A DNA stretch of 64,000 bases from assembly GCF_004010195.1 (NCBI RefSeq), contig NC_057734.1, forward strand, positions 23,303,423-23,367,422, in the 5' to 3' direction. Source of the stretch: Chiloscyllium plagiosum. Taxonomy: Eukaryota. The notes beneath the pieces are model-generated. The model did no database searches. It was given only the letters and a program-made list of their open reading frames with translations, and was not told the DNA's origin. The position numbers and the translations under genes are program-made. The number at the start of each line of letters is the position of its first letter. Positions within the stretch are counted from its first letter, which is position 1. Below, in pieces: positions 2,468 through 59,210 of the stretch.

Positions 2468-2697
2468 GAGAAAGTGAGGACTGCAGATGCTGGAGATCAG
2501 AGCTGAAAAATGTGTTGCTGGAAAAGCGCAGCAGGTCAGGCAGCATCCAAGGAGCAGGAGAATCAACGTTTCGGGCATAAGCCATTCTTCAGGAATCTTC
2601 AGAATTCCTGAAGAAGGGCTTATGCCCGAAACATCGATTCTCCTGCTCTTTGGATGCTGCCTGACCTGCTGCGCTTTTCCAGCAATACATTTTTCAG
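2468..2697. mobile_element. Short non-coding foldback PLE-derived insertion with 16-bp TSD
   Basis: Inverted arms ~2493-2597 and ~2604-2699. Direct repeat ctaatggtcaaacaag at 2452-2467 and 2698-2713. Confidence 0.85.
2602..2640 (+). ncRNA. Minimal hammerhead motif, second family (antisense copy at ~2561-2598)
   Basis: GAAUUC-CUGAAGA-A-GGGC/uuau/GCCC-GAAA-C-AUC-GAUUC. Confidence 0.72.
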
Positions 2698-2874
2698 CTA
2701 ATGGTCAAACAAGTATACTCTTGAAATATCGAAGCTTGGTGACACTGCTGTTTTCCAAGTGTCCCAAAATGTTTCTTTTTCAGGAATTTATATTCTGCAC
2801 AATTCTGATTAACTGCATTAGTTAATTTGGTAAAAAATTATGTTCTCCTGATTAACTTTTAGCTACTTGCTATT

Positions 2875-3195
2875 TGATTAGATTAGATTACATTACAGCG
2901 TGGAACCAGGCCCTTCGGCCCAACAAGTCCACACTGACCCGCCGAAGCACAACCCACTCATACCCCTACATTTACCCCTTACCTAACACTATGGGCAATT
3001 TAGCATGGGCAATTTAGCATGGCCAATTCACCTGACCTGTACATCTTTGGACTGTGGGAGGAAACCGGAGCACACCCATGCAGACATGGGGAGAACGTGC
3101 AAACTCCACACAGTCAGTCGCCTGAGGCAAGAATTGAACCCGGGTGTCAGGCGCTGAGGCAGCAGTGCTAACCACTGTGCCACCGTGCCGCCCAC
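2875..3195 (-). mobile_element. HE1/V-SINE-like SINE
   Basis: Homologous to 11281-11600. Confidence 0.88.
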
Positions 3196-3788
3196 AAAGC
3201 TGCAGGATAAAGCTACAATGTAAAGCTTTCCATTTATTTAGTTTGTAAATATCAAGTTTCTTTCCAATTATTGTGTAAGAAAATCAGGAGCTCTCCTGGA
3301 ACATGATTTCACAATGTTGTAATTATTAATATTTGATGTGGGAGATGCATTGAGGCATATTGAAAGTGGTGGTGCTCTGAATTTGCTAGACATAAAAGCC
3401 CCTACTGACATTTCAGTAGACATGTTGCCAGCTGCATGATATAAAAAGAATAGCTGGTAACCAGATGGAGGGAAAACCCCATTAAGAAGAGCCTGAGGGA
3501 CTGCCAACAAGTTGAAAGTCAATGGGGAAAGCTTGGCTGTGATCAAAGCAGCACTGATGGAATTAATGAGCACACATAATCATGGCACCTACAGAAACTC
3601 TGAAAGATCCAAGTACAAGATGAAAATTCTTCAAATCTGAGTTGATCTAATTTTAAAACATAAAGAAGTGGATGTTTCATAATTTCTACTCTCCTCTGCT
3701 TCCCCTTACAAGCATCTAACCAGCAGCAAAACCACAACTCAATCCCAAAGAGATGAAAGAAACACCAAGAAGTGTATTGCAGACTTAC

Positions 3789-3866
3789 CAAGATCTCGTA
3801 TTAGTACATGCTGCCCTTTGACTTCCTCCTTCAGGACTGATAGTTTCTCCTCTAATGTTGTACTTC
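3789..3866 (-). CDS. CCDC157: CCDC157 coding exon 4 (GSTTLEEKLSVLKEEVKGQHVLIRDL); missed by the ORF track
   Basis: Acceptor ttctgttttag, donor G|GTAAGT, 78 nt, phase 1-1, in frame with the previous exon, heptad-like composition. Confidence 0.82.
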
Positions 3867-6249: not shown

Positions 6250-6560
6250 TAAATTAGATTCCCTACAGTGTGGAAACAGGCCCTTCGGCCCAACAAGTCC
6301 ACACCAACCCTCTGAAGAGTAACTCACCGAGATCCATTTCCTTCTGACTAATGCACCAGCACTGTGGGCAATTTAGTATGGCCAATTCACCTGACCTGCA
6401 CATCTTTGTGACTGCATGGGTATGCTCCGGGAGGAAACCAGAGCAGACCCATGCAGACATGGGGAGAATGTGCAAACTCCACGCAGACAATCGCCCAAGG
6501 CTGGAATTGAACCTGGGACCCTGATGCTATAAGACAGCAGTGCTAACCACTGTGCCACCC
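6250..6560 (-). mobile_element. HE1/V-SINE-like SINE
   Basis: Same family, different subfamily body. Confidence 0.85.
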
Positions 6561-7440: not shown

Positions 7441-8202
7441 GTTTATGAAGGTTTGTAGCTCAGGTTTAGGTTTAGGGTGTAGATTTGCTCGCTGAGCTGT
7501 AGGTTTGATATCCAGACGTTTCATTACCTGGATGGGTAACATCATCAGTAGCGACCTCCAAGTGAAGTGAAGCTGTTGTCTCCTGCTTTCTATTTATATG
7601 TTTGTCCTGGATGGAGTTCCTGGGGTTTGTGGTGATGTCATTTCCTGATCATTTTCTGAGGGGTTGATAGACGGTATCTAGATCTATGTTTGTTTATGGC
7701 GTTGTGGTTGGAGTGCCTCTAGGAATTCTTTGGCATGTCTTTGCTTAGCCTGTCCCAGGATAGATGTGTTATCCCAGTCAAAATGGTGGGTTTTTTTCCT
7801 CCGTGTGTAGGGCTACAAGGGAGAGAGGGTCGTGTCTTTTTGTGGCTAGCTGGTGTTCGTGTATCTTGGTGGCTAACTTTGTTCCTGTTTGTCCTACGTA
7901 GTGTTTGTGGCAGTCCTGGGACAGGCTAAGCAAAGACATGCCAGAGAATTCCTAGAGGCCTGGTACTCCAACCACAACGCCATAAACAAACACACAGAGT
8001 TGGATACCATCTATCAGAAAACGAACAGGAAATTATATCACCACAAACCCCAGGAAACCCATCCAGGACAAACATATAAATAGAAAGCAGGAGACAACAG
8101 CTTCGCTTCACTTGGAGGTCGCCACTGATGATGTTACCTAGCCAGGTAATGAAACGTCTGGATATCAAATCTACAGCTCAGCGAGCAAGCCTACACCCTA
8201 AA
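7441..8202. mobile_element. Foldback Penelope-like 3'-end remnant (inverted pseudo-LTR arms around a GIY-YIG fragment)
   Basis: ~7460-7760 is the reverse complement of ~7915-8200. It encodes REFLEAW..N..INKH, the PLE C-terminus. Degenerate TSD attcagt.gaat at 7424 and 8203. Confidence 0.85.
8122..8161 (+). ncRNA. Minimal type-I hammerhead ribozyme motif in a PLE pseudo-LTR (inverted copy at 7512-7551)
   Basis: CCA-CUGAUGA-U-GUUACC/uagcca/GGUAAU-GAAA-C-GUC-UGG: both core boxes, stem II, stem I and palindromic ACGU in place of stem III. Confidence 0.82.
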
Positions 8203-11280: not shown

Positions 11281-11600
11281 AGATTAGATTAGATTAGATT
11301 ACAGTGTGGAAACAGGCCCTTCGGCCCAACAAGTCCACACCGACCCGCCGAAGCGCAACCCACCCATACCCCTACATTTACCCCTTACCTAACACTACGG
11401 GCAATTTAGCATGGCCAATTCACCTGACCTGCACATCTTTGGATTGTGGGAGGAAACCGGAGCACCCGGAGGAAACCCACACAGACACGGGGAGAATGTG
11501 CAAACTCCACACAGTCAGTCGCCTGAGGTGGGAATTGAACCCGGGTCTCCGGCGCTGTGAGGCAGCAGTGCTAACCACTGTGCCACCGTGCCGCCCACAA
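11281..11600 (-). mobile_element. tRNA-derived HE1/V-SINE-like SINE (young)
   Basis: On the - strand it begins ggcggcacggtggcacagtggttagcac (A box), then ggttcaattcc (B box), a CR1-like 3' end and an (aatct)n tail. Confidence 0.88.
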
Positions 11601-14130: not shown

Positions 14131-14159
14131 GCTCACCGGTTTTTAGTTCATAAAATGCT

Positions 14160-16239: not shown

Positions 16240-16850
16240 AAGGCAAAAGAAGTGCATCTATTGCACCCAGTGTGGTCTCCTCTACATGGGTGAGACAGGA
16301 TGCCTTCTTGCGGATCATTTCAAAGAACATCTCTGGGACACCCGCAACCACCAACCCCACCCCCTCGTGGCTGAACACCTCAACCCCTCCCACTCCATCA
16401 AGGACATTCAGGTCCTGGGCCTCCTCCACCACCAAACTATTGCCGCCTGACGCCTGGAGAAGGAACGCCTCATATTCTACCTTGGGACCCTGCAACCATA
16501 CGGGATAAATGTGGATTTCAACAGCTTCCTCATTTCCCCTCCCCCCACATTATCCCAGTCCCAAGCCTCCAACTCGGCACCACCATCCAGACCGGTCCAT
16601 CACTGCCCCCCCTGACCTATCACCTTCTCCCTCACCTTCATCCACCTATTGCTTTCCCAGCTACCTCCCCCAACCCCACCCCACCTCTCATTTATCTTTC
16701 AGCCCTGACCCACAAGCCTCATTCCTTAAGAACAGCTTATGCCTAAAACGTCAATTCTCCTGCTCCTCGGATGCTGCCTGACCTGTAGCGCTTTTCCAGC
16801 ACCACACTCTCGACTCTGTCTCCAGCATTTGCAGTCCTCAGTTTCTCCTA
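16240..16850 (+). mobile_element. PLE 3' fragment (GIY-YIG remnant + pseudo-LTR with decayed hammerhead)
   Basis: Decayed IYC..CGLLY.GET and RLEKERLIF.LG motifs. Ends in the same ...cagtcctcagtttctcc terminus as the foldback family. Confidence 0.75.
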
Positions 16851-19699: not shown

Positions 19700-21250
19700 T
19701 TGCATCTTTGTAATGAAACAAAGAACTGCAGATGCTGGAACTCTATGAAGAGTAAACAGAGTTAACATTTTCGTGCCCAGTGAAACACCAGTTTCATCTT
19801 TAGTTTTGGGATCCACCTAGAATCACAACAATCTCCATAATGTACAATGTTCCTCGAGCAGTTGTTTTCGCCTAGATCCAACCTTAGTGCCATGTAGTGT
19901 AATATTCGCACTCTCAAACTTTCTCTGTCCATCAGCACTGCCTCACACTGTCTCAGAGCTGTGCTGGACCCCAGTTTAATTTTCCAGTTCGTTCGGAGTT
20001 CTAACAAGAAACTTTTTCTCTCCCTGTCAGACCTCAAGGAGCACAACCTGGAACAACTTTGAGATACCCACATTGCTCTGGAACATCACTCTCCTCCCTT
20101 TCTCCATGACTCCATGCTTTCTCCTGATCCCACCACTTGTTGGGTATTTACTATTCCTTCTGACCTTCCAGTCTTTGAAATTGATCTTTCTTTACACGGC
20201 AAAGGTCTTAGTTTTATCCCTTTACACCCTACCTCAATGAATTTCAGGAACGAAAATGTTGAACTCTTCTTATGTCACCTTTGTGCCCACTTCTTTTGAC
20301 AAGAGTACTCTTTCAATCTCACAAACGCCTTCACCCACCTCCAACAGTCTCCTTCCACTTGGACCTCTCCCTCTGGCCTTTTACCTGCACTCTGTTCATC
20401 AAGAACTATCAATGTAACATCAGTCACCTTAATTTTTCTGCCCCTCTCACCCATTCAAGCCTGCCTCCCTCTGAACTGACTGCACTACATGCTCTTGAAT
20501 CCAATTTTGACTTTGTCATCAAGCCTGCCAACAAGAGTGGTGCTCTTGTTATGTGGCACACTGACTTCTACATGTGGAGGCTGAGCACCAACTCGCGGAC
20601 CCCTCTTCCTATCTACCCTGGTCCGTAACCCCATCATCAAACATCAGGACATGTGTCCACAACTGTCACCAACCACATCTCTTCTGGTGATCTCCTCACA
20701 ACAGCCTCCGAGCTCATTGTCCCTCAACTCCATTCAGAGCACTTCTCCAAACGTACCTTCCAGGTGAAGGAGCAGAGTTTTATGGGCTCTATCCACAGAA
20801 AATGACTTGCCAACATTTTTGTTGTAGTCCTGCTGCAATGTTCCAGCAAACCTCAGCACAAGCGCAAGGAACAACACATCATTTTCCACTTTTGGATCCT
20901 GCAGCCTCTAGGACTCAACATTGAATTCAATTATTTTACAGTCTCATTCTATTCTTCCATGTTTTCATTATCTCTTATTCAGCTTTGCTTCTGTCCTGGC
21001 CTGCTGTCTATTATCTCCTTGTTTACCTACTCCTCATATCTCTCACTCTCTCTCTCTAGGCTCTGTCCCAAAATTCTGGTTGTTATCTCCCCCCCCCCCC
21101 CCCCCCACTTCGGCTTCAGCATAAATACCAGTTTTTCCTAAACCAACAGGTTATGATGAAGGGTCACCAGACTCAAAATGTTCATTCTGCCTTCTCATTG
21201 ATGCTGCCAGACCTGCTGAAATTTTTCCAGCAATTTCTGTTTTTGTTTCA
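19700..21250 (+). mobile_element. Old, internally deleted PLE copy
   Basis: KGLSFIP and FVIKPANKSGALV motifs of the PLE N-terminal/RT region. Decayed hammerhead and terminal repeat at ~21150-21245. Confidence 0.65.
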
Positions 21251-21664
21251 ACAGTGTGTCTTTTTGTCAGAGTTGGACCATGTTGCACATTTGACGTGTT
21301 AAGCAGGCACAAAGGCAGAGAGGGGAAAGGGACAAAAGGAAAGGTCCATGACAGGGTGGATGGTGAAATGACAAAATGAGGTGGGAACGGGTCCAGTAAA
21401 GAAACAAAAAGATGGGTCAAGAGGAGATGCAAATGATGACAATTTAATGTAAGATTGAGATCCAAGATACTGTAACTCGGGTTGTTCCTGCGTGGTTAAA
21501 ATATTCCAACTTTGTGCATGTACAAATTGCATTCACTGTAACCTCACCAATCTGTGGAAGCTGCATTTAGAGTGATGGCTTTTGGTGTACATTTGGAGAA
21601 AACCTTTTGTTAACTTATGCCTGTAGTCTTGTACATTTCCAGAATCATTATATTCAATTAATTC

Positions 21665-22526: not shown

Positions 22527-22893
22527 ATTTTGCTTCCAATTTCCACCTTCTGCTCATCTTTATTTGGTCTATTTCTGGGAGAAAGTGAGGACTGCAGATA
22601 CTGGAGATCAGAATCAAAAAAGTGTGGCGCTGGAAAAGCACATCAAGTCAGGCAGCATGGGAGGAGCAGGAGAATCAATGTGTTGGGGATAAGCCCTTGA
22701 TCAGGAAAGGTAATTCCTGATGAAGGGCCTATGCCTGAAACATTGATTGTCCTGCTCCTTGGATGTTGCTTGACTTGCTGTGCTTTTCCAGTGGCTCACT
22801 TTTTGATTCTGATCTCCAGCATCTGCAGTCCTCACTTTCTCCCAGAAGTAGACCAAGTAAAGATGAGAAGAAGGTGGAAATTGGAAGCAAAAT
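22527..22893. repeat. ~370-bp imperfect palindrome: foldback PLE-derived element plus inverted ~50-bp flank
   Basis: Arms contain gagaaagtgaggactgcagat... and its reverse complement. Hammerhead core ctgatgaagggcctatgcctgaaa at ~22717-22740. Confidence 0.85.
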
Positions 22894-24372
22894 AACTTAT
22901 CCCCATCCCATAACACCATCCTATGCAAATTACAGGAGTGTAACATTTGTCCTTTTAGCTCCTCCCTCCTGAATCACTCCATCCAGGTGAAGCAGCAATT
23001 TACTTGTATTTCCTTCAATCTAGCCTGCTGTATTAACTACTCAAGATGTTGTTTCTGCTGCACAGATGTGTCCAAATGGAGACAGGGTAACCATTTTGAG
23101 TAACATCTCTGCTCAGTCCACCAGTTAACTTGACCTTCCAGTCATTTGCCACTCAATATGCCATCTTACACTCATGCTCTCACCTCTGTACTAAGTGTTC
23201 TGAAGTGTTCCAGTGAATAGCACTTCATTTCTGTTTAGGCATTTTACAGCCTTCTGCACTCAATATAATTTCAACAACTTTAAACCATGAACTCTGTCCT
23301 CCAATTTGATAATTCCAAAATCCGCCTACCTGCATTTCTATATCTTCTTCCTATGTTTATGTTTTCAATCAGATCAGACCTACGTTCTGGTATTAACACC
23401 CACTTCAGATGTATGCTTTGCCCTTTCTCTACAACCATTACTACTGCCTTTGCTTTTGGTTCTATGACATCTTTGACCTCCATTCTCCCTCACCCTCAAA
23501 CCTTTCCTTGACTTTCCCTTCTGTTCCACTGCTTCTTGCCACATTCTTCAACAGTTGAAAACTCAATTTTCCATCTGTCTTTAGTTTTGAAGAGAGATAT
23601 TAGACTTGTAACAATTACACTGTCTCTCTCTCTCTCTCCTCAGGTGCTACCAGACCTGCCAAGTGCTTCCAGCATTTTCTATTTCAGATCTCCAGCATCT
23701 GCATTATTTTGCATAATCAAAAACATAGTTTTCACAATCTTGAATATAGAGCTGGAGGAGATTGCAGTGATAGGATAACTATAAGGTAACTGAGGAATTT
23801 GAATCTGATGTAAGGAAAGAGAGCAAAGGAATCGGGCATTATAGATGAGCAGGCCTTCATGGGTGATGTAGTGTACGCAGTACAAGTTGGAATGAGATAC
23901 AGTTTTACAAAGGAATAAATTCGGGAAGAAGACAAGATGTACATTGGAGAAATTGATTCCAGAACTGGCTAAAGTGTATAAACAGTGAATGAAAATAGGA
24001 CAGAGGTTGGTCATGCTACAGAGCTGGAAATTAGCAATCTAGTGAGGGATATTTGATTAGAACTTCAGCTTGTGGTTACTTTAGACAACTAGGGTGTAAA
24101 CTATCTGATACAATTTAAAGGAGCAATCAGAAAGAAGATGAAATTGTATGCCTCAAGTCTTATTAAGGATCAATTGGAAGAAGTACTGAATCATTGTCAG
24201 ACAAGCAACACTGAATGGATTATGAAGTCAAGGGTGATGAAGGAGAAGAACTGGGTGTCATCAACATAAATGTGCTAACAGTTATTATGTAGAGGTACCA
24301 GTATTGGACTGGGGTGGACAAAGTCAGAAGTCACAGGACACCAGGTTATAGTCCATTAAGTTTATTTGAAAT

Positions 24373-24407
24373 CACCAGCTTTCAGAGCACTGCTCCTTCG
24401 TCAGGTG
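24373..24407 (-). ncRNA. Hammerhead-like motif, third family, probably inactive
   Basis: CAC-CUGACGA-A-GGAGC/agu/GCUCU-GAAA-GCUG-GUG. G at the cleavage position breaks the NUH rule. Confidence 0.55.
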
Positions 24408-24699
24408 AAGTGGTTATTGTAATTGAAGTGTGTAAATGAGGAAGAGGATTGTGAATCTAACAGGCAAAGCAGGGGCAAGAGAAGAGGAGAAGGGTGGGAC
24501 CTTAAGGTCGAAGTGGAGGAGGGAGAATGGAATGTTGGATTAAGCTGACTGCCATCAACAGTCAAAAAAGATGATCAAAGTTACACTGGAGAAATAGAAT
24601 ACTGCAGGTGCAGAAACTCTGAAATCGAAACAGAAAATGCTGAAAAAAAAGTCAGATCAGGTAGCATCTGGGGAGAAAATAGTTAACTTTTACATAAGA

Positions 24700-24975
24700 G
24701 TCGAAAAGTGTGGCGCTGGCCAAGCAAGTCAGACAGCATCTGAGGAACAGGAGGGTCAACGTTTCAGGCAAAAGCCCTTCATCAGAAATGTGGCGGGGTG
24801 GGGGTGCTGAGAGATAAATAGAAGGGTGGGGTTTGGGGTGGGGGGAAGGTAACTGGGCATGCGATAGGTAAATGCAGATGGGGGGGTGGGTGATAGTGAT
24901 AGTTGAGAGGGGAGGGTGGAGCGGATAGCTGGGAAGGACGATGAACGGGTGGGACAGTTCAAGACAGCGGTGTCA
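24700..24975 (-). mobile_element. PLE pseudo-LTR fragment with hammerhead core
   Basis: Reverse complement of the 16.6-16.8 kb family. CUGAUGA-A-GGGC/uuuu/GCCU-GAAA-CGUU on the - strand at ~24757-24786. Confidence 0.7.
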
Positions 24976-27499
24976 CCTTTTACTTAACCCGGTTTCTGTA
25001 TCTGCACCTGCTACTAGTTCTGCTCAGCTTTATTCAGAATTTTCTGTTTTTTATTCCAGTTATGATAGATATTCTTTGATCAAATTGGTAAAATTGTAAT
25101 AAGTGCACAAAATGAATTTGTTGCTTCACAAATTGTTACAATAGGTACAGCCATCTACTTTCTTCAGAATATCGTTTTAAGTTAGTTGCAGGTGTTTTAA
25201 ACAGTGAAAATACTTTTAAGGTTCTTTTGAACACATTAACCAACAAATATTTAAATCTTTGCTGCTTATTAGCAAGCCTCAGGAAATACAAACATAAATA
25301 ACAATGTTTGCCAGTTCTCCCATTATCTTAACACAAGTACTGCATGGGCCACTGTCTCAAATGAAATTGGCTAATTTGACATAGAATATGGATCAAAGTG
25401 AAACCTTCCTGGTCCCTGTGGCTTATCAACTATCTACTGTTTGCCCTAACAATTGAGTCATTGAGGGAGCTGTGACTAGAAATATACTCCATAGCATTTC
25501 AAAATTATGTTTGAACAAATGTCAAGAGCCAACCACTATGTACACATCATTATAAATATTTACAGCTTGGAGAGTTGTTATAAACACAACTAATTATACC
25601 GTAAAGCACAATTCCCAATAGAACTCTACTGAATCAAAATATACTCTTGACTTTTTCAGGATACCATTTAAATGACTTATCTCTACCAAAAAACTAAGGA
25701 TATATTTGTTTAAACTTGGATTGTTTTTGCTAGAGTGTCGGAGGGTGAGGGGTAACATGATAGAAGTATGTAAAATGATGAGAGGCATTGATAGAGTGGA
25801 TAGTCAGAGTTTATTTTCCAAGATGGAAATATTAAATACCAGCTAAGGTGAGAGTGGGAAAATTTAAAGAAGATGTGCGAAGCAAGTTTTTTTACACACA
25901 GAGGGCAGTGAGTTCCTGGATTGAGCTGCCAGGGGAGCTGGTAGAACCAGGTACGATAGCAACATTTCGGAGGCATTTGGACAGACACATGAACAGGCAG
26001 GGAATAGAGGGATATGGAGCATGTGCAAGCAGATGGGATTAGTTTAGAATGGCCTCATGGTTGACATGATGAGCCTAAGCTGAAAATGTGTTGCTGGAAA
26101 AGCGCAGCAGGTCAGGCAGCATCCAAGGAACAGGAGAATCGATGTTTCGGGCGTTTCTGTGCTGTACTGTTCTATGTTCTATATTGTAGAGCATGTACTC
26201 TGGGATTCTGAAGATAAATATTACAAGCATGAAGATGACAAATGTCACAATCACATTTTTAAATACCACTTAATTTATGATATAAGTAAATTTATTGTAA
26301 CCACTAAATAATTTAAACCAGAATTATTGACTATACCAGCTCTCAATAATGCTTCTCCTAATATGTGTGTGACCATAAAGTGTGCGTAATTACTAAAGTT
26401 GGGAGGCACATGTGTAACAGTTATTTAACACAGGTTTGTGCATGTCACAGCTGGATCACACATGTTCTTGTTCCACTGAATAAAAAACAATCTACCTATT
26501 GCCTGAATTGGACTCAACAAAGAACCTTGGCAAGACCAGGTCATGGAACCCAACACAAATGTGAAAACCTTTTGCAAAAACAGATTAAAAGAAAGGCACA
26601 CATGCAGATAGACAGCACCTGTATTTGTAACACAAGATCAGAAACTTACTCTAATTATTGCTACTTCATTGCCCCAATGAGTTTTACTTACTCATGGAGT
26701 GGAGGCATTATTGGCTATGTATCCTACCTTTGTTGGCAGAGATAAGTCAGTTAAAAAGTATTATTGCCCTAAAGAAGATGGTGGTGAGCTGTCTTCTTGA
26801 ACTGCTACCCATTGATAGCACTTTAAAACATTTAACTTAAGAGATTATACATTTTTCTCATAAAAATGACGAATGGGAAACAGTCTGAGAGTTACATGGG
26901 GACAGCAATTTGAATAGGTTTTCAGGACAACATTCAATTTACAATTTTTTTTGTGATCTCTGATTTGTTGCCACTTTATTCCACGAACAAGCATCACTAA
27001 GTTAATTCATTTTGACAGTGCTGATTTTGTGGTTATCATGTTTGCATCATGTCAACCTATAAAATTACCAGTCAAATCAAAGTAAAGTGCTGCAAATCTG
27101 AAATAAAATAATGTGCCAGCAATACTCAGCAGGTCTGGCAGCATCTGTGGAAAGAGAAATAGAGTTAACATTTTGGGCTCCAAATGTCTATTCCATTATC
27201 TATTTCTGGTCACAAAGGTACAAAGAAGACACTTCAATAAAAGCAAAATGTTGGAAATCTGAAACAACAAAGAAAATATTGTAGCAACACAGCAGGTCTG
27301 GCAGCATCTGTGAATAAACAGAGTTAATGTTTCAAGTTCAAGGTGACTCCTCCTCAGAACAAATACTTCAATGTTGGAGGAAGTTATAAGAATTGCCACA
27401 AAGATCATGCCTATTTAGAGGCTGAATTATGAGAAAAGACTGCAGTCTTTTCTCATAATTCAACCTTGAAAGATGGAAATGAAGAAGGTATCGTATAAA

Positions 27500-31437: not shown

Positions 31438-31803
<366 letters not shown>

Positions 31804-31914: not shown

Positions 31915-32180
31915 AAGACACGCATGAGACTTCCTAGAAGTATGGCATTTTAACCGGAACTCTATCAACAAGTCAACACATTGACTTGGACCCAATTTAC
32001 CACCCCCTGAGAAAAAGAACAGGAAATGACATCGCCAACCCAAAGAAACCCAAACATATAAATAGAAAACAGGAATCACCAGCAATGCTTCATCCGGAGG
32101 CTCACTGAAGATTTTACCTAGTATGGTGATGAAACATCTGACCACAAACCTTCCAGCTCAGCCAGCAAACCTAAAGCCAG
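31915..32180 (+). mobile_element. PLE 3' fragment (same family as 7441-8202)
   Basis: DFLEVWH..SINK remnant. ctgaaga-ttttacctagtatggtgat-gaaacatc hammerhead-like core at ~32105-32140. Confidence 0.7.
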
Positions 32181-33344: not shown

Positions 33345-36202
33345 GTTGTGGTTCTGTTCGCTGAGCTGGGAATTTGTGTTGCAAACGTTTCGTCCCCTGT
33401 CTAGGTGACATCCTCAGTGCTTGGAAGCCTCCTGTGAAGCCCTTCTGTGATGTTTTCTCTGGCATTTATAGTGGTTTGTCTCTGCCGTTTCCGGTTGTCA
33501 GTTCCAGCTGTCCGCTGCAGTGAAGAAGGGCTCATGCCTGAAACATCGATTCTCCTGCTCCTTGGATGCTACCTGACCTGCTGCGCTTTTCCAGCAACAC
33601 ATTTTCAGCTCTTGTCCTATAATAGTAGTGTTGTCACAATTGAACTTATGTTGCTTGTCACCTGCGTGTGTGGCTACTAAGGATAGCTGATCGTGTCGTT
33701 TCGTAGCTAGTTGGTGTTCATGGATATGGATCGTTAGCTGTCTTCCGGTTTGTCCTACGTAGTGCTTTATGCAGTCCTTGCATGGGATTTTGTACACAAT
33801 GATGGTTTTGCTCATGCTGGGTATCGGGTCCTTTGTCCTGGTGAGTTGTTGTCTGAGAGTGGCTGTTGGTTTGTGTGCTGTTATGAGTCCTAGTGGTCGT
33901 AGTAGTCTGGCTGTCAGTTCAGAAATGTTCTTGATGTATGGTAACGTGGCTAGTCCTTTGGGTTGTGGCATGTTCTCATTCGTTGTCTTTCCCTTAGGCA
34001 TCTGTTGATGAAATTGCGAGGGGAACCGTTTTTGGCGAATACATTGTAGAGGTGTTCTTCTTCCTCTTTTTGCAGTTCTGGTGTACTGCAGTGTGTTGTG
34101 GCCTTTTTGAACAGTGTCTTGATGCAACTTCTTTTGTGTGTGTTGGGGTGGTTGCTTTCGTAGTTCAGGACTACTGTAGTCTGTGTGTGTGGCTTCCCTG
34201 TATACCTTTGTGGTGAATTTTCCATTCGGTGTTCTCTGTACCATCACGTCTAGGAATGGGAGTTGGTTGTCCTTTTCTTCCTCTCCAGTGAATCTGATTC
34301 CTGTGAGTGTGGCATTGATGATCCGGTGTGTGTTTTCTATTACTGTGTTTTTAATGATTACAAAGGTGTCATCTACATATCTGACCCAGAGTTTGGGTTG
34401 AATTTGCAGTAAGGCTGTTTGTTCTAATCTTTGCATTACAGCTTCTGCTATGAGTCCAGAGATGGGTGAGTCCATGAGTGTGCCGTTGATTTGTTCATAT
34501 ATTTGGTTGTTGAATGTGAAGTGTGTGAGGCACAGGTCCAGTAGTTTGAGTATGCAGTCTTTGTTGATAGGTTCCCTGTCTTGTTGTCTGTTCTGTATGT
34601 CCAGCAGGTTGGCTATTGTTTCTCTGGCAAGGGTTTTATCGATACAGCCGTTACATCGAATGAGACCATAGTTTCTTCCTTATCTATATGTATATTTCTG
34701 ATGATGTCCAAGAATTCCTGTGTTGACTGTATAGAGTGTCTGGATCCACTGATCAGGTGTTTCAGTTTCTGTTGTCATTCTTTAGCCAGTTTGTGTGATG
34801 GTGTCCCTGGTTGCGATACGGTGGGTCTGAGTGGGATGTCTGGTTTGTGCACTTTAGGTAGTCCATAGAATCTGGGGTGGTGTTGCTTTCAGGTTTCATT
34901 CTCTGTAGGTCAAACCTGGTTATTTGTCTGTTTTTTTGCAGGTTTCTCAGTGTGTTGTTTATCCTATTGGTGAGCTGTGGAGTGGGGTCAAACTCTCTCT
35001 TTAGGTAGGTGTTGGTATCTGCAAGTAGTTGTTGCGCTTTCTGGATGTACTCTGCTTTCTGGATGTACTCTGCTTTGTCCAGGATGACCATCATTCTGCC
35101 TGTGTCTGCTGGTAGTATGATTATGTTCTTATCATTTCTTAGTGTTTTTAGTGCTTCCCTCTTCTTGGTGTTGAGGTTGTGTATTTGTCTTTTCCTTGTT
35201 ATCAGGGGTACAATATTTTGTCTCACTGTTTGTTGTGTCTCTTCTGTCAGTCCATTGATTTTTGAGTGTGCATTCTAGTGCTGCTAGGAAGTCTGCTGTC
35301 TTGGTGTCCATGTGGTTATAGTCGAGTCCCTTGGCCAGTATTGTTCCTTCCATGTCTGTGAGCTGTCTGTGGGAGAGGTTTCTAACCCAGGTATGTGTTG
35401 TGGTGTCCTCTCTGTTGTGTGTTAGTTTGGCCATTTTTTCTTTTAGCGCCGTTATTTTGCGGTGTGTGGTCCTTTTCTGTCCTATGGTGACAGCCTGTTC
35501 TATGGTCCGGGTCCATTCCTGATTGGTGATTTTTGAAATTAATAATTTTTGGTGTGCAATTTCTTGTATGTATTTGTGTAGTCTGTTGTGTGCATCTGTA
35601 ATCATTACCTGGATCATCCTGAATCCGTTCTGTCTGGCTGTGTCTCGGGCTTGTGGGTTGTTGACTGGTGGTCTGTATCTGACACATGGTGGAAGGATTC
35701 GATTCTTTTGGCATTCGTGCAAGAACTGGAGTTGTTCGTATGTGGCACTTAGGCAGTTGGCACAGGATTCCCATTTCCTGGATTGTCTTAGCATCTCTCG
35801 CTCGTAGGTGTTCAAAGTTTGTGAGAAGATTTGTAGCTCGGGTGTTCGTTGTTGCGGTTCTGTTCGCCGAGCTGGGAATTTGTGTTGCAGACATTTCGTC
35901 CCCTGTCTAGGTGACATCCTCGGTGCTTGGGAGCCTCCTGTGAAGCGCTTCTGTGATGTTCTATCAACAAATACATCGACCTGGACCCAATATACAGACC
36001 ACTGCAGCGGACAACTGGAAGCGGCAGAGACAAACCACTATAAATGCTGGAGGAAACATCACAGAAGTGCTTCACAGGAGACTCCCAAGCACTGAGGATG
36101 TCACCTAGACAGGGGACGAAATGTCTACAACACAAATTCTCAGCTCGGCGAACAGAACCACAACAACGAGCACGCGAGCTACAAATCTTCTCACAAACTT
36201 TG
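33345..36202 (-). mobile_element. Near-full-length Penelope-like element (RT + GIY-YIG endonuclease), frameshifted, with direct and inverted pseudo-LTRs
   Basis: RT motifs MDSPISGLIAEAVMQ, WVRYVDDTF and LPFLDV. GIY-YIG motif IVYKIPCKDC..HYVGQTGR. Terminal repeat at ~33345-33520 and ~35810-35950, inverted at ~35960-36202. TSD aaaaacartatc at 33333-33344 and 36203-36214. Confidence 0.93.
33381..33420 (-). ncRNA. Minimal hammerhead motif in the Penelope 3' pseudo-LTR (other copies at 35887-35926 -, 36089-36128 +)
   Basis: GCA-CUGAGGA-U-GUCACC/uagaca/GGGGAC-GAAA-C-GUU-UGC. Confidence 0.78.
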
Positions 36203-37719
36203 AAAAACAATATCTCCCAAGTCAATTTGCCCAGCATCAAGGCTCTAATCAATTAAAACTAGATCTATGGGGTAAGACATGTTGTTCGTAGGCCTAAAAC
36301 CAGACTCCTGAAGCAACTGTTTTACTCAGAAGTCAGTTATAAAAACATAGAAACATAGAAAAAGGCCATTCAGCCGTTTGAACCTGATCCACCATTCAAA
36401 TGAGACATGGTCGATCTGTGGCCTAAATCCATATACCTGCCTTTGGCCAATATCCTTTAATACCTTTGGTTAACAAAAGTATCTCAGATTTAAAATTGGC
36501 AATCAATTTAGCATCAACGACTGTTTGTAGAAGAGAGTTCCAAACCACTATCACCCTTCTTAACATCTCTCTTGAATAGGGTGGCCCTAATTTTTAGAAT
36601 CGCCAATCAGAGAAAATAGTTTATCTTTATCTATCCTGTCACAAAAGGAAGATTATGGAAATGCTTTAGGCTGTCCTTAAAACACCTTTGAAGAAGTCAA
36701 ACATCCCCATAAACCTGGCTTGTGTAGAGACCGAAATAGAGGAGACTCATTTGCAAAGTCACTGATCACATGCAGAAACCTCAGTGGGACTGTGCAGACA
36801 TTAAATCAAAGCTTCGGGTAAAAACCTCAATCATCCAAACAATTCCCCAGCCAGTCATTCAAACAGCACCAGCTTTGCCTCACATGTGGCAGATCCTGCA
36901 GATGGGTGCATTGGACTACTTGGACATTTCAGAACCCATGGTACCAGAATGGAAGCAAGTCATCATCAGTTCCAAGGGACTGCTCAAAAAGGAACAGCAT
37001 CGCAAGGGAGATTGGGGAGAAGCACTTTGAGGAGGTAGGGGTGGGGGTGAGGAAGGGAAAAGCACTTCAGAAGAGAGGAGGGAACCTGAAGCAGGAGGTG
37101 AGTGGAGGGTGAATCACCTCGAGAATGGGGAGAAGGGAGGGAAGAACACCCTCAGAGGACAAGAGTACGAGATGGGAAGCACCACCAGCAGATGAGTGTA
37201 TTGCAGAAGATGGAGAGTCACACGGCTTAATCTGCTTTCCAAACCCTCACAGCACCCCTGATCCAACTGAATCTGAATTATAAAGTTCTTTTTCCCCCAT
37301 ATTGGATAAACAATGAACTATTCAATTATTAGCACGAGGGCCCCCAGCCCAAGGTAAACCAAGAGAATGATAGATGCTGTAAATCAGAAACAAAAACAGA
37401 AACCAGGGTCACCTGGGGACCTTGCAGTCCACTGGATTCGATATCGAGTTCAATAATTTTAGGGCTTGAACTCCCCCATGTCCTCGTCCTCTACGACACA
37501 CACCAGGCCTTTTTAAATCGCATAGTCTGCCATTACACAGTACCTATTGTTAGCCACTAACAGTCTGCGTTAACAGCTATTCACCCTCCCAGCCAGATCG
37601 TTATCTACTTCTTTGATCTTCTCTATCTTTGGGCTCTATCCCCACCTATCGTTTACTCTTTATCTCCTCTCCCCACCCTATCTTCTTCATATAAACCGAC
37701 AATTTCCTAACTACCATCA

Positions 37720-37755
37720 GTTCTGAGGAAGGGTCACCACACCCGAAACTTTAAC
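37720..37755 (+). ncRNA. Minimal hammerhead motif in an old PLE 3' remnant (~37360-37820)
   Basis: GUU-CUGAGGA-A-GGGU/caccac/ACCC-GAAA-C-UUU-AAC. Confidence 0.6.
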
Positions 37756-37949
37756 TCTGACTTCTCTGCACAGAAGCTGCCAGATCGGCTGAGTTTTTCC
37801 AGCAACTTCTGTTTCTGTATATTACGGGGGGGGGGTGGTCGGGCGACAAGTAGCACACGAGTACTATCACTGGACATTCATTTTAGGAATGAAGGTCTAC
37901 ATTAAAGTTTTCCCGACTCCAAAGATATGTCTGAAGAGGTTGATCAAAC

Positions 37950-38437: not shown

Positions 38438-39786
38438 GTGGGTTTTAAAACGGCAAGAGGTTTTGAGAAAAAAAAACTTTGGCACCGTCTGTCGTTGTGA
38501 TGCGGGTACCACCCCACCCCCAAAACAAGCTGAGGCCTCCAGTCCACAGGCTCTGGGCCTGGAGCTCGCAGTCAACGTCGCATATTGGCCTTGCATCCCG
38601 GATTCCGGGATGTGGTTATTTTCCTGTCTCCGGTCTGTATTATCTATTGGTTATGGGAGCTGGTCCTGGATTAATCTCTCGGGCACACGATTAAATAATC
38701 CACACATCTGCGGAATGTTAGTCTGATTTGTCACAGAGATGATAATGTCTGCGTTTACCAAGCATTAAAATCAGGCCCATTGTCCGACTGCAATCCGGAT
38801 GGTTACATGATACTTCTAAAATTCCCCTCGTCCAGTTCACACACGTTTGTAAACAGTTGATGATGGGGAAATATGATACTTTGAAACGCAAAAACAAATA
38901 GTGCAGAGTATTGTAAAACAATTTATTTTAGAAGACTGCAGTATTCCAATCATTACTGAGTACTGTTGAGATTATGGCATTGTTGTTAAAATTAATCCAG
39001 ATAAGCAACTGCTCGTTTAGTTGGAGAAGATGGAGCTGAACAAAGCACAGTACCCTACTGCGCACTTAAATTGTAGTGCGCTTATATATTCCAGACTTCA
39101 TAGGGTCCAGATGAGCCCTATCCCAATATAAAATTAAGTAATAAATTAGCATGGATTTTTAATGTAAGGAACTAACAAGAAAGCTTTCGTTTGTCCAATA
39201 TAGCATACATCTAAAAGCCAAAAAGAATGTAAATCTTTCAAGCCTGAAAAATTTAGGCAAAATATGATAAGTAATATATTGTTTGGTGTGTAGAGGGGTG
39301 ATGGCAACTTATGATGAGTTAAATCCATCTACCATCACAAAGCACTGAAATACAATTTGCTGCTTGCCCAGTTAGGCATCTGAACAAATAGAGTATTGAC
39401 TTGAACCAATTCTTCAGCTGTCTGGGAAGAATTCCATGCCCTATTGACAGCTATAATCCATCAATGGGACAGGTTAGCAGGCCTAGTTATCTGTAGTGCT
39501 TTGGAGTATTGAACAGCTACCTGGTTGTAGTTTTTTGACGTTTTGGGCAAGAGACCTTCATTAGGAATGAGGCTTGTGAGCCAAAGGGCCTGGAGAGATA
39601 AATGCTATCCTAACATAACATGGGCATTTTTTTTTAATCAAAGATTAATGTGTTTTGGGGGTTAATTGGAACAAAAATACCATTTCCACAATCTGATTCT
39701 GAGTCATCTGCAGACACAAAGTCAGGTTTTAAAAATCATTAAGGTGATTAAGAATTTAGTGGCAATTATTTTGTTTTGTTTTAAAG

Positions 39787-40154: not shown

Positions 40155-40185
<31 letters not shown>

Positions 40186-40719: not shown

Positions 40720-42780
40720 GGCATGCCGAAAGCAGCAGCAGGCATACCTGAAAATGAGGTGTCAATGAGGTAAAGCTACCAAGCAGCAAGTGATAGATGG
40801 AGTTTTGTGATTCTGCAACCAATAGATTAGATCTAAGCTCTGAAATCCTGCCACATCCTGTTATGAATGGTGGTGGACAATTAAACAACACATTGGAGGA
40901 GGAAGCTCCACAAATATCCCCATCCTCAATGATGAAAGAGCCCAGCACATCAATACAAAAGATAAGGCTGAAGCATTCACGGAAATCTTTGGCCAGAAGT
41001 GCCAAGTGGATGATCCATCTCTGCCTCCTCCAGTGATCCCAGCCATCACAGATGCGAATCTTCAGCCAATTTGATTCACTCGACATGATATCAAGAAAAC
41101 AATTAGAAAACTGTGGATACTGCAAAGACTTGGGGCCCGGACAACATTCCAGCAATACTATGGAAGATTTGTACTCCAGAGCCTCCCACTGCCCAAGCCA
41201 AGCTTTTCCAATACAGTGCAGCACTGGTTTCATATCTGACAATATGGAAAATTGCCCAGGTATGTCCTGTACACAACGCATGGCAAATTCAACCCAGCAA
41301 TTACCACTCATTACTACTCTTCTTCATCAGTAAAGAGATAACCTGTATAATCAACAGTGTTATCAAGCAGCATCTGCTGAGCAATAATCTACTTACAGAC
41401 ATCCAGTTTGGATTCCACCAGGGCTAATCAGCTCCTGATCTCATAACAGCCTTGGTACAAACATGGACAAAAGAGTTGAATTCCACAGATGAGGTGAGAG
41501 TGACAGCCCTTGACATCAAGGCTGCATTTGACTGTGTGGCATCAGGGAGCCCTAGCAAAACTAGAATCAAGGGAATCTGGGGCAAACTCTTTGCCAGGTT
41601 GGAGTCACACCTGGCAAATAGAAACATTGTTGTGATTGTTGGAGTTCAGTCATTTTGACTCAATAAGTTCCTCCTTCAGCTGCTTCAACAATGACCTTCC
41701 TTCCATAAGGTGGGGATGTTTGCAGGTGATTGCATAATGTTCAACACCATTCGTAACTCCGATAACTGAAGCAGTCCATGTTCAAGTGCAACAAGATCTG
41801 AGAAGCATCCAGTATTGTGCTGACAAATGGTAAGTAATTTTCATGCATTCCTGATGAAGAGCTTATGCTCAAAACGTCAGCTCTCCTGCTCCTTGGATGC
41901 TGCATGACTGGCTGTGCTTTTCTAGCACTATGCTTTTTGACTCTGATCTTCAGCATCTGCAATCCACACTTTCTCCAATGCCACACAAATGCCAGGCAAT
42001 GACCATTTCAAATAGAAGGCAATCTTAACTACTGCTCTTGACATTCAATGGTGTTACCATCAACAGAACATCCACCATCAACAGAACATCCACCATCAAC
42101 AGAACATCCACCATCAACAGAACATCCACTATCAACTTCCTTCAGTTACAATTGACCAGAAATTAAATTGGACTCTCCATATGAACAGTGGTCCAAGGGC
42201 AGGTCAGAGACATGGAATACTACGGTGAGTAACTCCCAAGACTCCCCAAAGCCTGTCTGCCATCTGCAAGGCTCACGTCAAGAGTGTAATGGAATATTTC
42301 TCACTTGACTGGATGAGTGCAGTTCTTACAACAATTGACAATATCAATGAGAAAGCAGCCAGCTTGGTGGGCACCACATCCACTACCTCTACCACCACCG
42401 TTCAATAACCGTACTGTTTACTATCTACAAGATACACACAGAAATTCATCAAAGATCCTTAGACAACACTTTCTAAACCAATGACCACTGCCATTCTAGG
42501 AGGACAAGGGTAGCAGATACATGGACACACACCCCACCTGCAAGTTCCTCTCCAAGCCACTCACTATCCTGACCTGGAAACATATCGCTATTCCTTCAGT
42601 GTTGCTGCATCAAAATCTTGGAATTTCCTCTCTAATGGTGTAATGGGTCTACCTACAGCACATGTGTTGCAGCAGTTGAAGGCAGCTCATGACCACCACC
42701 TTGAGGGCAACTGGGGACAGGTAAAAACGCTAGCCAGCCAATGATTACCCATGTCCAATGAATGAATAAATAAACAAAAA
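40720..42780 (+). mobile_element. Decayed non-LTR retrotransposon (CR1/L2-like) in SF3A1 intron 3
   Basis: GPDNIPA, QFGFHQG and ALDIKAAFD motifs. A-rich tail at ~42760-42780. Confidence 0.8.
42056..42136 (+). repeat. 18-bp tandem repeat (accatcaacagaacatcc) x ~4.5
   Basis: Directly visible, nearly perfect units. Confidence 0.95.
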
Positions 42781-55680: not shown

Positions 55681-56432
55681 CTGGTAGGGTAGGGGTTTTT
55701 TTTTTTACCCTGGTAGGGTTTCTTTTATTTACCTACAGTAAATTATCCTCAAGATTTTCGCTGAGATCTACCTTTCCCTTTCTGCGTGATGATTTCTCTT
55801 TGCCCCAATTTCTATTCCTCGTGGACTGAAATTGATTCTGGAAGTCAAACTGTGTTTTATGGACCAGATCATAATCATCAGCTACTTCAGCTGCTAACCT
55901 TGCTGTTTTAACTCTCTGCTCTTCCACATAATTTCACACTACTTCCTCGCTAAGGTTACCTTCAGCCTTTATCTCCAGCCTTTCAGCTGACTTTCTTTTT
56001 AAGTGTCAGTTTTTGAAGTTCAAAAGCTCTCTCTTTTTCTCTCTGTTCTGCTGCTCTCTTTTTCCTTCTCTTGTGCTTTCAATTGTAAGTCAAACTGTTT
56101 CATTTCTGCTGCCCTTTCTTTATCTCCCCTCTAACTCAAGCTGCTTCATTTGCAATTGAATTCTTGCCATCTCTGTAGACTCTAGTTTTTCCAGCATGTT
56201 TAAATACTGAGCTACCACTGTAATTATCTCTCCTTTCCTCGCAAAAGCAGGTAGTTCCAATCCCACCTGGTCTGCTAATTCCTGCAGCTTGGTCTTATTC
56301 ACCTTTTGCGAACCTTCCAAAGTCACTGCATCCACATCCAGAAAACGTTTGGCGACTGAATGAGCCATTACTATCCCAAACTTTGTCTACCCAATCAAAT
56401 CAACACCTGAAATGCACTAACACCTGTTTAAA

Positions 56433-56450
56433 ATCCCAGCTGAGCCCCCA
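56433..56450 (-). other. Primer-binding site, tRNA-Pro-like
   Basis: TGGGGGCTCAGCTGGGAT lies 3 nt inside the 5' LTR and compares with the canonical tRNA-Pro PBS TGGGGGCTCGTCCGGGAT. Confidence 0.8.
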
Positions 56451-57431
56451 GTCTGTTGTGGACTAGGCCAGACCACTCAAAACTTTCTTAAGCAGGCAGT
56501 CAAGACCATAACTTTGCGATTTGTTTTGGTAAGTGTACAGTGAAAATTACCTGGAGTAAGTTAGCTAGGTTAACTACTTGATTTTAAAATAGGCAAAAAT
56601 GTATTCACAAAATTATGCAATGAAACATAAAGAACCCCTACAGAACTCAGTCTATCCAAACTAGACTTAATTATGCTGTTCCGAAGAGACACCAGTCCCA
56701 ATAAGCAAACCCCCTGAGAAACCAGTATAAATTAATAGAACAGATGCTTACAGGTTTGAGTTAGAAGGGCAGAGAGAGAGTGAGTTTGTTTCCACACAGC
56801 TCACTGTTGAACTCCCAACTAGTTCTGTTCTGAACTGAACTGGTCACTACAGAGCTGACCACTTCCTTTACATCATACAGGTCACTTCTAAAACATGACC
56901 ACTTTGGCCTGAAGTCTCATTTGTTTAAATATAAACAGAAAGACCTCTTATTACCCTTTAATCTCTATAGCAAACCAGATTAATAAGTCACAGAGAGCGG
57001 GTTTTTACCCTTCTGAAGAAAGCCAAGGACATAGCATCCTTGAGAAAAGGAACAGCTTTTACAAAAAAGAAAGCAGCTTTGTGACATTAGCATCAAATAT
57101 CTTTTGGAAGAGTGTTCCAGATTTACGCCATCTACACCACTATGCCACCTAACTTTATTATTTGAAAACTGAATTTGCAGCGCTCTCAGGTGCATTTGAA
57201 ATATGACCCTCTGCTCAATCATGAGATCGTTTTTCACATGCATGTTAATAGTGCCCTCTACACCACTCCATCATTCCTCTTCCCTCTGCCTCACATTCGA
57301 TGATGTGAATTTAGTTCAAATTGAAATTTTCATTTTCAGGAGTGTAGAAGAGTAGGAAGTCTGTCTCTTATGCTTAAAAGGAATGTCAATCACTGTATCG
57401 ACATGTAAATAATTTTGACTGTGTGAAATAG

Positions 57432-57582
57432 GTGAGGTATCGAGTTGAATGGGCCAAATTTCAGGAGCGTGAGAGGAGGAAAGAAGAGGAAGAACGGGAA
57501 AGGGAGAGAGTAGCCTATGCCCAGATTGACTGGCATGACTTTGTGGTGGTGGAAACAGTTGATTTCCAGCCCAATGAACAAG
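57432..57582 (+). CDS. SF3A1: SF3A1 exon 6 (VRYRVEWAKFQERE...IDWHDFVVVETVDFQPNEQ)
   Basis: PRP21-like motif IDWHDFVVVETVDF. 151 nt, donor G|GTAATG. Confidence 0.96.
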
Positions 57583-59013
57583 GTAATGTAACCATACAAT
57601 AGCATGAAATGTTGACTTGGGTTTAAATGTTGAACGTGGTCATTCCAAGATTAATCTGATTACAGTTTTTACAACATTCTTTCCCTTGAATGTTTCCTAG
57701 CTTGCACTTGCAATTACGGTAAGTTAATTTGAAATGTTATTGAAAAATAACGTGGATAATCTTGGAAGACTTTAATGGAATAGATTTCTTCTCTGTACTA
57801 CCAAGCACCACCTTAGAATCCTGGTCTCCAATCTTTTTGAACCCTGCCTCAGCAGTATGAAACGGTCATGGAAAAATGGAAACAATCTGTTCAGCTATTT
57901 TTCTTCACTTTCCCTACTTCTTATCTAAACTTAACGTACCGTCAATTGCTGACCTATCCTAGCGTGAATTCAACTCTTCAGTTTCTTTGTATTATTTTCC
58001 ATGCTCTCGCTAAGCTCAGCTCATTTATTAGACTCGGGCACTCCTCACTTGATACCATTCCTAAGGAACCTCTACTTCTCATGCTAGTTGACATTGTAAA
58101 TAGTTCTGATCTCATTTTTTCCTCATCCGAGATACTTGCATATGTTTTTGCCCTTTAGATCTGTGCTCATTTCAGTCTCAAAATTGTTGTCATCAATGCA
58201 AGCTGATTTTCTCCCCTTTGAAAAGATCTTAATCACAAATGTGTAATGGTAGTCTCTGAGATTGGGATGCATTATAATTTCTTAACCTGTCTATTCTTCA
58301 ACATGATCAATCTCCAACTTCTCCATTTTGAAGTGTGATGTAACTGCCCTTATTTGTTCCCACTTTCAACCTAAGGAGTTGTAGACACACTGTTTATAGG
58401 AGTAAGTAATATTTGTAGGAAACTTGCACTTTCAATTCCGAAGATCATCAGAGATCCATCCTAAGTTCTTTTCCTCTGTTACCTGTTACTTTGGCTGATA
58501 TCCTCGGCGTGGATCAGCTTGCACTTGCACATTATTAATACCCACCTGGATGGTCCTGTCATTTTCTCTTGGCTTCTGTCTTCATGCTGTTAGGTTATTT
58601 CTTTTTCAACACCAGTCTTGGATGAACAATGCTGTCTTGCAGGAAAAAATCAAAACCATCCTCTTCAATCCTGGCACAAACTGTGTTTACTTAACAGTAA
58701 CTCCACCCTTAGTTCTGCTTAAAGTTTATAGTTGGATTATTCACACTGTTCCATTGGACTTCAAGTTGAAATGTGGACTTCAAGTTGAAATGTTGACCTC
58801 TACTCCTTTTCTCATCACAAAGTCAGTCGACCAGCTTTTAACTTGCATAACATCAATTGCCATCACTCCTATTTCAATTCGTCCACCACTGAAGTATTCA
58901 TTTGAGCTGATTTCCCAATGATGTTCTAAGCAGCCTCTGGTATACCAACTTCAGCCCATTCAAATCCATACTCCCCCTGTTATCAATCCCACAACAAGTC
59001 CTGTTTAATCATT

Positions 59014-59210
59014 GTTGAAACTTTATTGCTGGAACAGCACAGCAGGTCAGGCAGCATCCAGGGAACAGGAGATTCGACGTTTCGGGCACAGGCCCTTCCT
59101 TGCCCGAAACGTCGAATCTCCTGTTCCCTGGATGCTGCCTGACCTGCTGTGCTGTTCCAGCAATAAAGTTTCAACTTTGATCTCCAGCATCTACAGACCT
59201 CACTTTCTCC
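59014..59210. mobile_element. Short foldback PLE-derived insertion, perfect 75-bp inverted arms, 18-bp TSD
   Basis: 59014-59088 is the exact reverse complement of 59101-59175. tcctgtttaatcattgtt at 58999-59016 and 59208-59225. Confidence 0.9.

Follow-up and report, generated by a model that had tools for sequence, protein, structure and literature searches.

What are minimal hammerhead ribozyme motifs doing in and around the introns of shark genes, and is their RNA still cut? The question is raised by a stretch of 64,000 nt from Chiloscyllium plagiosum (assembly GCF_004010195.1, NC_057734.1, positions 23,303,423-23,367,422 of the forward strand; hereafter the window, whose numbering is used throughout), in which a sequence-only reading had described dispersed hammerheads from Penelope-like elements (PLEs). 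We found that the motifs are minimal type-I hammerheads in the pseudo-long terminal repeats (pLTRs) of at least four families of these retrotransposons. With a probability of roughly 0.85, the copies are pLTR hammerheads left behind as 5'-truncated, often head-to-head insertions, and RNA is cut only in active parent elements, as dimers or with protein.

Hammerhead motifs in the window

Profile searches, followed by a check of each site, identified 20 hammerhead-like sites with a recognisable motif, named here by the position of core nucleotide C3 with the strand sign appended (e.g. 7548-, 8125+). The whole core is kept in five of them (2592-, 7548-, 8125+, 24785-, and 33417-) and broken in the other 15. 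Every coordinate in the sequence-only reading does hold a motif of the CUGANGA-N-stem II-GAAA type on one strand, but of its 11 "good" cores only 7548-, 8125+, 24785-, and 33417- proved whole, the other seven being lesioned, and five sites had been missed (2592-, 22704-, 27357-, 39564-, and 59103-). Among the core-intact sites, only 7548 and 8125 carry a GUC triplet; 24785- and 33417- carry GUU, and 2592- has lost its first stem II pair (G10.1>U). The commonest lesion is CpG decay of an ACGU palindrome (2608, 22717, 32105, and 36092), which 35923 combines with U4>C. Site 37723 has CU at 15.2/16.2, and 24404 has G at cleavage position 17, where its genome-wide relatives have A or U among the matches listed. 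A strict descriptor (intact core and stem II of at least 3 pairs) recovered four window sites and a relaxed one (one mismatch, stem I of at least 3 pairs) seven; neither found any in 12 dinucleotide-preserving shuffles. The insertions are as follows.

2467..2700, both strands: family A head-to-head insertion in a CCDC157 intron; minus arm long-tailed with an intact core (C3 2592, G10.1>U), plus arm short-tailed with a decayed palindrome (C3 2608); target duplication of 16 bp, 2452-2467 / 2698-2713
7441..8202, both strands: family B (Poseidon-type) head-to-head insertion in a CCDC157 intron; hammerheads core-intact with GUC (C3 7548- and 8125+); minus arm extends into endonuclease-coding DNA, 67% identical to family C
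16716..16848, plus: decayed family A copy, G5>U and G12>A
21150..21260, plus: decayed family D copy, three core changes
22578..22842: older family A head-to-head pair, C3 22704- broken and 22717+ with decayed palindrome
24260..24410, minus: family E copy, AGCU palindrome, C3 24404, without a cleavable triplet because of G17
24704..24789, minus: family A copy, core intact, GUU, 2-bp stem I, C3 24785
26079..26152, minus: family A stub beginning within stem II, no 5' core
27260..27360, minus: family D-like copy, C3 27357, palindrome decayed
32010..32176, plus: family H (older relative of family B), C3 32105, palindrome decayed
33345..36202, minus: full-length, broken family C PLE (pLTR, frame, pLTR, and an inverted piece)
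33520..33612, plus: family A stub in the family C endonuclease end, beginning at U4, C3 missing, palindrome decayed
37716..37820, plus: family D copy, C3 37723, CU at 15.2/16.2
39535..39568, minus: small broken fragment of family A within SF3A1 intron 1, C3 39564
41847..41976, plus: sense-oriented family A copy with G12>A, lying in an intron of SF3A1
59002..59210, both strands: family A head-to-head pair in an SF3A1 intron, both arms beginning within the motif, no 5' core; 18-bp target duplication, 58999-59016 / 59208-59225

Close pairs of sites lie mostly on opposite strands, and the copies are solo or head to head, never tandem; the sole same-family, same-strand close pair flanks a PLE frame. 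An Rfam search of the window gave 11 matches at E <=5, none of them a hammerhead, as expected for motifs without helix III. Its microRNA matches at 2540-2659 were rejected, as they correspond to the head-to-head palindrome. Single-strand folding of 11 sequences gave modest z-scores (best about -2.0), which is evidence neither way.

The structure was examined in a 642-kb sample with a pattern that fixed the core and left the stems free. It produced 62 matches, compared with one, lacking a stem, for the reversed control. Stem II of at least 3 pairs forms in 46 of the 62 when an extra unpaired nucleotide after CUGANGA is allowed, and in 12 without it. G10.1 faces C or U at 11.1 in 51 of the 62, G-U being used by families B and H. 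Stem I, on which the search placed no demand, has C-G (29) or A-U (8) as its first pair and U-A (35) or C-G (7) as its second among the 46; in family A it is weak, with 2 pairs, a U-U mismatch, and 1 pair. Helix III is absent, and positions 15.2-16.2 form a palindrome, ACGU in families A-D and H and AGCU in E, frequently CpG-decayed in copies. The catalytic core CUGANGA / GAAA / UH is present in five of the 20 window sites and in the genome matches. The extra nucleotide, the palindrome in place of stem III, and a minimal type-I architecture needing a partner thus all stand as first described. So do covariation and core conservation, whose absence had been named as grounds for refutation: the stems covary between families while the core is kept. 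Since the stem changes lie between families, selection acted on the parent elements.

The sequence-only reading had implied novelty, and here it does not hold, since every structural trait is already named for the minimal hammerheads of metazoan PLEs (Cervera and de la Pena 2014, PMC4209133). Those motifs share the missing helix III, the palindromic 15.2-16.2, the extra nucleotide between 9 and 10.1, and G10.1-C11.1. They also occur as several families per genome, mostly as solo motifs of truncated PLEs, with opposite-strand pairs 100-700 bp apart; same-strand pairs are rare and flank an open reading frame (ORF) at a spacing of about 3 kb. The helices differ: the commonest family here has a stem II of 4 bp and a stem I of 2-4 bp, compared with 7-8 and 4-5 bp in Schistosoma (PMC4209133). 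The motifs here come from a shark, and the passages of PMC4209133 that bear on this name none. Our search of the shark, Penelope, and hammerhead literature found no paper on these motifs in sharks, although subscription papers, Repbase/Dfam, and supplements may list them.

Penelope-like elements carrying the motifs

Families A, B, and C each form the 3' end of a frame for a reverse transcriptase (RT) and a GIY-YIG endonuclease, which links them directly to PLEs, as had been proposed; the link is weaker for family E. In the family C element, the 5' pLTR piece carries a CpG-decayed hammerhead with U4>C (C3 35923), and the frame starts at an ATG within it (35917-35915), reading MSPRQGTK; this codon consists of A9, the extra nucleotide, and G10.1. 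The frame runs through an RT with YVDD to the GIY-YIG endonuclease and is broken by stops and frameshifts. The 3' pLTR, 2.5 kb downstream of the 5' copy, holds the core-intact hammerhead with GUU (C3 33417), and an inverted, 5'-truncated piece at about 35960-36202 on the plus strand holds a CpG-decayed one (C3 36092). The target duplication is 12 bp with one mismatch (33333-33344 and 36203-36214). Pfam detected only RVT_1 in the frame, at E 0.004; look-alike proteins in the Atlas carry HTH_animal, RVT_1, and GIY-YIG at 0.96 (0.96-0.97 for families A and C, from one source). Family C has one frame with RT and C-terminal GIY-YIG, direct pLTRs, and no zinc-finger linker, as in Penelope/Poseidon. 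Inverted 5'-truncated copies, a tail at one end, and target duplications were found in families B and C.

The family A stub at 33520-33612, inside the endonuclease end of this element, showed no target duplication, and element sequence seems to be missing there. GUU instead of GUC at the cut, as in 33417, is also the triplet of about 47 among the 100 B/C matches listed first, counted by eye, and looks like a family C subfamily trait rather than decay.

Family A, the commonest, is the 3' end of a Neptune/Nematis-type PLE. Among 25 loci chosen on the family A RT, 20 have a same-strand family A hammerhead match downstream. The locus L208 encodes in one run DKG, the RT core, a CX2-5CxxC linker (CNCKKCTTC, between RT and endonuclease), and GIY-YIG, followed by a 3' untranslated region of about 160 bases and the hammerhead; upstream DNA of L004 likewise encodes a GIY-YIG domain. 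The linker marks Neptune and Nematis (PMC8557442), and it cannot tell one from the other. DNA upstream of family B matches the family C endonuclease at 54-69% identity, and in L230, L232, and L238 the DNA upstream of family E (AGCU) is 25-35% identical to the endonuclease region of family A. The downstream part of D resembles A, and H resembles B. The claim of at least three families therefore stands, with A, B, C, and E tied to PLE frames and D and H placed by likeness. In family E (L212-L241; window 24360-24375), we also observed AATAAA or ATTAAA about 10 bases past the predicted cut, so that the predicted cut and polyadenylation signals adjoin, and a TATA-like box at about -42.

The motif load was estimated in the 3.56-Gb genome. 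The ACGU-form core pattern (CTGANGA-N10-28-GAAACGTH) gave 169,237 matches, compared with 2,249 for its reversed control, and the AGCU form (GAAAGCTH) 52,838 compared with 402, which bears out the very high load first suggested. A family A pattern including decayed palindromes matched 135,609 times, and a family B/C pattern 11,281 times. A sample of 56 10-kb stretches, placed at round coordinates along C2-C23 and amounting to 538 kb excluding N, contained 106 A/D copies by the family A model, or about one per 5 kb, and 13 copies by the B/C model, giving about 0.65 million and 80,000 copies by extrapolation. The sum of both core patterns, 222,075, stands against about 9,000 motifs in Xenopus and 4,000 in coelacanth (PMC4209133), which is not a like-for-like comparison, because that descriptor required stems and the pattern here requires none.

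Insertion ends, transcripts, and a probably uncut template

If insertions were copied from cleaved RNA, their 5' ends would lie at the cut, +28 from C3 in family A and +34 in families B and C. We chose family A copies by the sequence downstream of the cut and, from 109 matches, removed 20 with low scores, eight at gaps or edges, and two of other families. Of the remaining 79 copies, 41 of them inverted, 47 begin within -15..+10 of C3 (22 of these within -6..-2), 13 further upstream, three within +26..+30, and 16 elsewhere. A core-containing model likewise placed 50 of 74 starts at the 5' edge. A young family A subfamily with a perfect 4-bp stem I and AATAAA (n = 30, scored by eye) has 22 copies starting at about -6..+5, six entering the PLE body, two starting within the motif, and none at the cut. 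In families B and C (n = 60, mapped partly by eye, the two arms of an insertion not being independent), about four ends lie within -15..+10 and one at the cut, while most reach 50-700 bases upstream. The pile-up of 5' ends at the hammerhead edge is thus specific to family A. Cleaved RNA was rejected as the template, given only 3/79, 0/30, and 1/60 ends near the cut; as the complete motif is retained in copies and hardly any begin at the cut, we infer that the templates of reverse transcription were uncut.

The remaining anatomy is that of PLE insertions. The head-to-head insertions at 2467-2700 and 59002-59210 carry target duplications of 16 and 18 bp, and head-to-head junctions vary from copy to copy. 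Two 3' ends recur, at about +92-95 or +130 from C3 in family A and at +72-78 or +101-117 in families B and C, and four window insertions have the long end on one arm and the short end on the other. Endonuclease-positive PLEs share the 5' truncation, the inverted 5'-truncated copy, the head-to-head palindromes, the optional one-end tail, and the target duplications (Arkhipova et al. 2013, PMC3846280; Craig et al. 2021, PMC8557442), and Neptune and Nematis share the CX2-5CxxC linker (PMC8557442). A 5'-end pile-up at the hammerhead edge, restricted to one lineage, is not described in the relevant passages of PMC3846280 and PMC8557442.

The two 3' ends also recall the Poseidon element PAc of Anolis, whose two internal priming sites they fit (Frangieh et al. 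2024, PMC11167929). Its ORF likewise starts where stem II begins, and the extra nucleotide supplies the T of the ATG in families B, C, and H. The anole hammerhead requires protein to cut, the template is mainly uncut RNA, and no RNA ends were seen at the cut (PMC11167929). PAc was tested in vitro, whereas the family C copy here is dead, with stops, frameshifts, an endonuclease stub, and no TATA in the 5' repeat. Several solo family A copies (L242, L245, L065:7339, and window 24789) show either a target duplication that ends in ATT/AAT and overlaps the first bases of the element or, at the 5' junction, a fold-back of 6-7 bases; ATT is preferred by the PLE endonuclease of the anole (PMC11167929).

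Of four RNA runs compared with the stretch at window 31301-38700, X22 yielded no reads and X1 and X2 consist of contigs; RNA ends could be seen only in X21, a poly(A) single-cell run. Of X21, 2% was read; at 92% likeness, the reads derive from many copies. Over the family C frame they are mainly sense, about 3:1 to 11:1 in most bins, strand having been assigned from SF3A1 exon 1, and the ratio flips over the inverted piece. Family A has 113 sense and 66 antisense reads. No pile-up of RNA ends at the cut was seen in this shallow, fragmented library (depth about 20 for C and 180 for A). X21 shows that relatives of family C are transcribed, and it says little on cleavage. Sixteen X21 reads join a repeat near 37400 (37229-37475), on the opposite strand, to family A tails (33598), probably reflecting adjacency at another locus.

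A splice acceptor behind the family A 5' edge was rejected, as position -4 lacks an AG and the flanks upstream are unique. The -4 base is the A of TCATTCC, which resembles the general initiator consensus. We tentatively propose, as a possibility that falls short of even odds, that transcripts of this Neptune-type family start at the first base of the hammerhead, so that the ribozyme would form the first 32 bases and could act as a decapping off-switch, and that run-off copying of internally primed, uncut RNA would yield stubs of 95-135 bp. A separate non-autonomous family, SINE-like (short interspersed element) or retrozyme-like, with short masters and a fixed 5' end, could produce the same edge, as seen in 47 of 79 copies and in 22 of 30 of the young subfamily with its 4-bp stem I and AATAAA. 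We consider it improbable, given that six of the 30 young copies continue into the PLE body with the same diagnostic letters, that junctions differ between copies, and that the copies are not tandem. Animal non-LTR retrozymes (bioRxiv 10.64898/2026.07.22.740005) also carry type-I hammerheads related to those of PLE pLTRs, in one case in a chondrichthyan. Theirs form tandem arrays; the window copies are solo or head-to-head element ends, and we rejected the non-LTR retrozyme assignment because no tandem head-to-tail units were found.

Uncut templates would also be expected if the motif no longer cleaved in these lineages and were kept as a protein-binding, promoter, or start-codon element. The marginal stem I of family A and the GUU triplets among B/C matches fit this, and PLE clades without hammerheads proliferate well (PMC8557442). 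We nonetheless regard it as unlikely, though somewhat less so than the separate short family: although stems and flanks are unrelated between families, all catalytic positions persist, as do the extra nucleotide and G10.1-Y11.1, even through the ACGU/AGCU swap, and the anole homologue cleaves, with rescue at C3/G8 (PMC11167929).

In the reading that we prefer, an active element would be transcribed from its pLTR, and the 4-base palindrome would allow pairing of two motifs, carried either by a single tandem transcript or by separate RNAs, probably assisted by protein, before cleavage after the triplet. The calculated energy of this 4-bp pairing between partners is -3.1 to -3.9 kcal/mol, compared with +1.2 to +1.3 for decayed palindromes. 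Lunse et al. reportedly described dimer cleavage of PLE hammerheads in 2017. Single minimal hammerheads do not cleave, and dimers cleave weakly (PMC4209133). In families B and C, the start codon lies upstream of the cut within the motif, and cleavage would remove it. Reverse transcription would be primed at one of two sites about 75-130 bases downstream and copy uncut RNA; family A stubs would be run-off copies reaching the transcript 5' end.

Several observations weigh against this account. Unconstrained cofolding favours stem-II-swapped over hammerhead dimers in three of four cases. TATA- and initiator-like motifs in families B and C show no 5'-end pile-up, unlike in family A. Families D and H are assigned by likeness, without a frame link, E is linked at 25-35% identity only, and the clade names, resting on motifs rather than a tree, are provisional. 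Finally, family A cores changed less than their flanks (10/380 vs 108/2090, p 0.035, in 38 of 39 copies passing a score and length filter, at non-CpG core positions), which could mean selection on copies, although subfamily differences raise the flank changes and the copies were found with a core-containing model.

Host genes and the fate of dispersed copies

Two genes lie head to head in the window.

31686-31438, 18316-18131, 6129-5410, 3867-3766, minus: coding exons of CCDC157, continuing past the left window edge
~38381-38440, 39790-39900, 39990-40200, 43476-43740, 57432-57590, 60750-60970, plus: coding exons of SF3A1

CCDC157 is 97% identical to the Chiloscyllium punctatum protein, and SF3A1 coding starts at about 38381, with a spliced contig ending at 38440. 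The sites had been placed inside essential-gene introns, and this does not hold. SF3A1 is an essential gene, but its copies (39564, 41851, and the 59002-59210 pair) are all core-broken, and most sites lie within or before CCDC157, which is not known to be essential: 11 fall within the coding span of CCDC157, six in the gap separating the first coding exons of the two genes, and three in SF3A1. With five of 20 sites intact overall, none of three in SF3A1 would be frequent by chance. As the 5' non-coding exon of CCDC157 was not detected, those six sites, at 32.1-37.7 kb, could lie either in an intron or between genes.

Could these copies act in host pre-mRNA, in trans or as chance pairs, and shape intron processing? 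More than 220,000 core-intact pattern matches could supply partners in plenty, all but one of the five core-intact sites in the window run sense to CCDC157 or to the region upstream of it, family RNA is present, and family A cores changed less than their flanks. Yet 15 of the 20 sites are broken, and families B and C show no core-specific constraint in the same comparison of non-CpG core positions with flanks: 5/288 core vs 46/1512 flank changes in B (24 of 30 copies, p 0.33) and 4/242 vs 19/1518 in C (22 of 30 copies, p 0.55), with core CpGs decaying at 4-17%. Single copies thus decay about neutrally, the core as fast as adjacent sequence. The partner helix would have only 4 bp at the energies given above, close pairs lie mostly on opposite strands, X21 shows no pile-up of RNA ends at its shallow, fragmented coverage, and published activity is weak (PMC4209133). 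Such activity is therefore the least probable of the explanations weighed here, and the findings are no evidence that the hammerhead copies regulate host genes. Because the dispersed copies are mostly solo or on opposite strands and are decaying, those in introns are likely inert passengers, and their cleavage, judged from sequence, is unlikely.

Other features of the window were noted. SF3A1 exon 3 encodes a run of nine glutamines (40156-40190), and an SF3A1 intron holds an LTR-retrotransposon remnant (50849-51484 and 56123-56635; RT_RNaseH_2 at E 5e-20), in which a direct repeat of 182 bp recurs at a distance of 5.6 kb. A repeat about 300 bp long, likely a shark HE1-type SINE, is dispersed over the window at 2873-3186, 6255-6567, 11279-11597, 60084-60385, and 61495-61813. 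Fragments of long interspersed element-type RT and endonuclease lie at 8854-9765, 45865-46785, and 55237-55704 (Pfam RVT_1 at E 1e-26 and 1e-9).

The present analysis contributes a full-length copy of Poseidon type, the contrast between lineages, a test of decay, the count of the AGCU family, and the corrected gene context. A known class of motif is thereby extended to this shark genome at very high copy number. If family A transcripts do start at the hammerhead, this would account for the several hundred thousand stubs, which far exceed the counts cited above, and for the lack of a pile-up in the Poseidon-type families. The genome is a good dataset for asking what PLE hammerheads do, as its thousands of young insertions record the ends of uncut templates.

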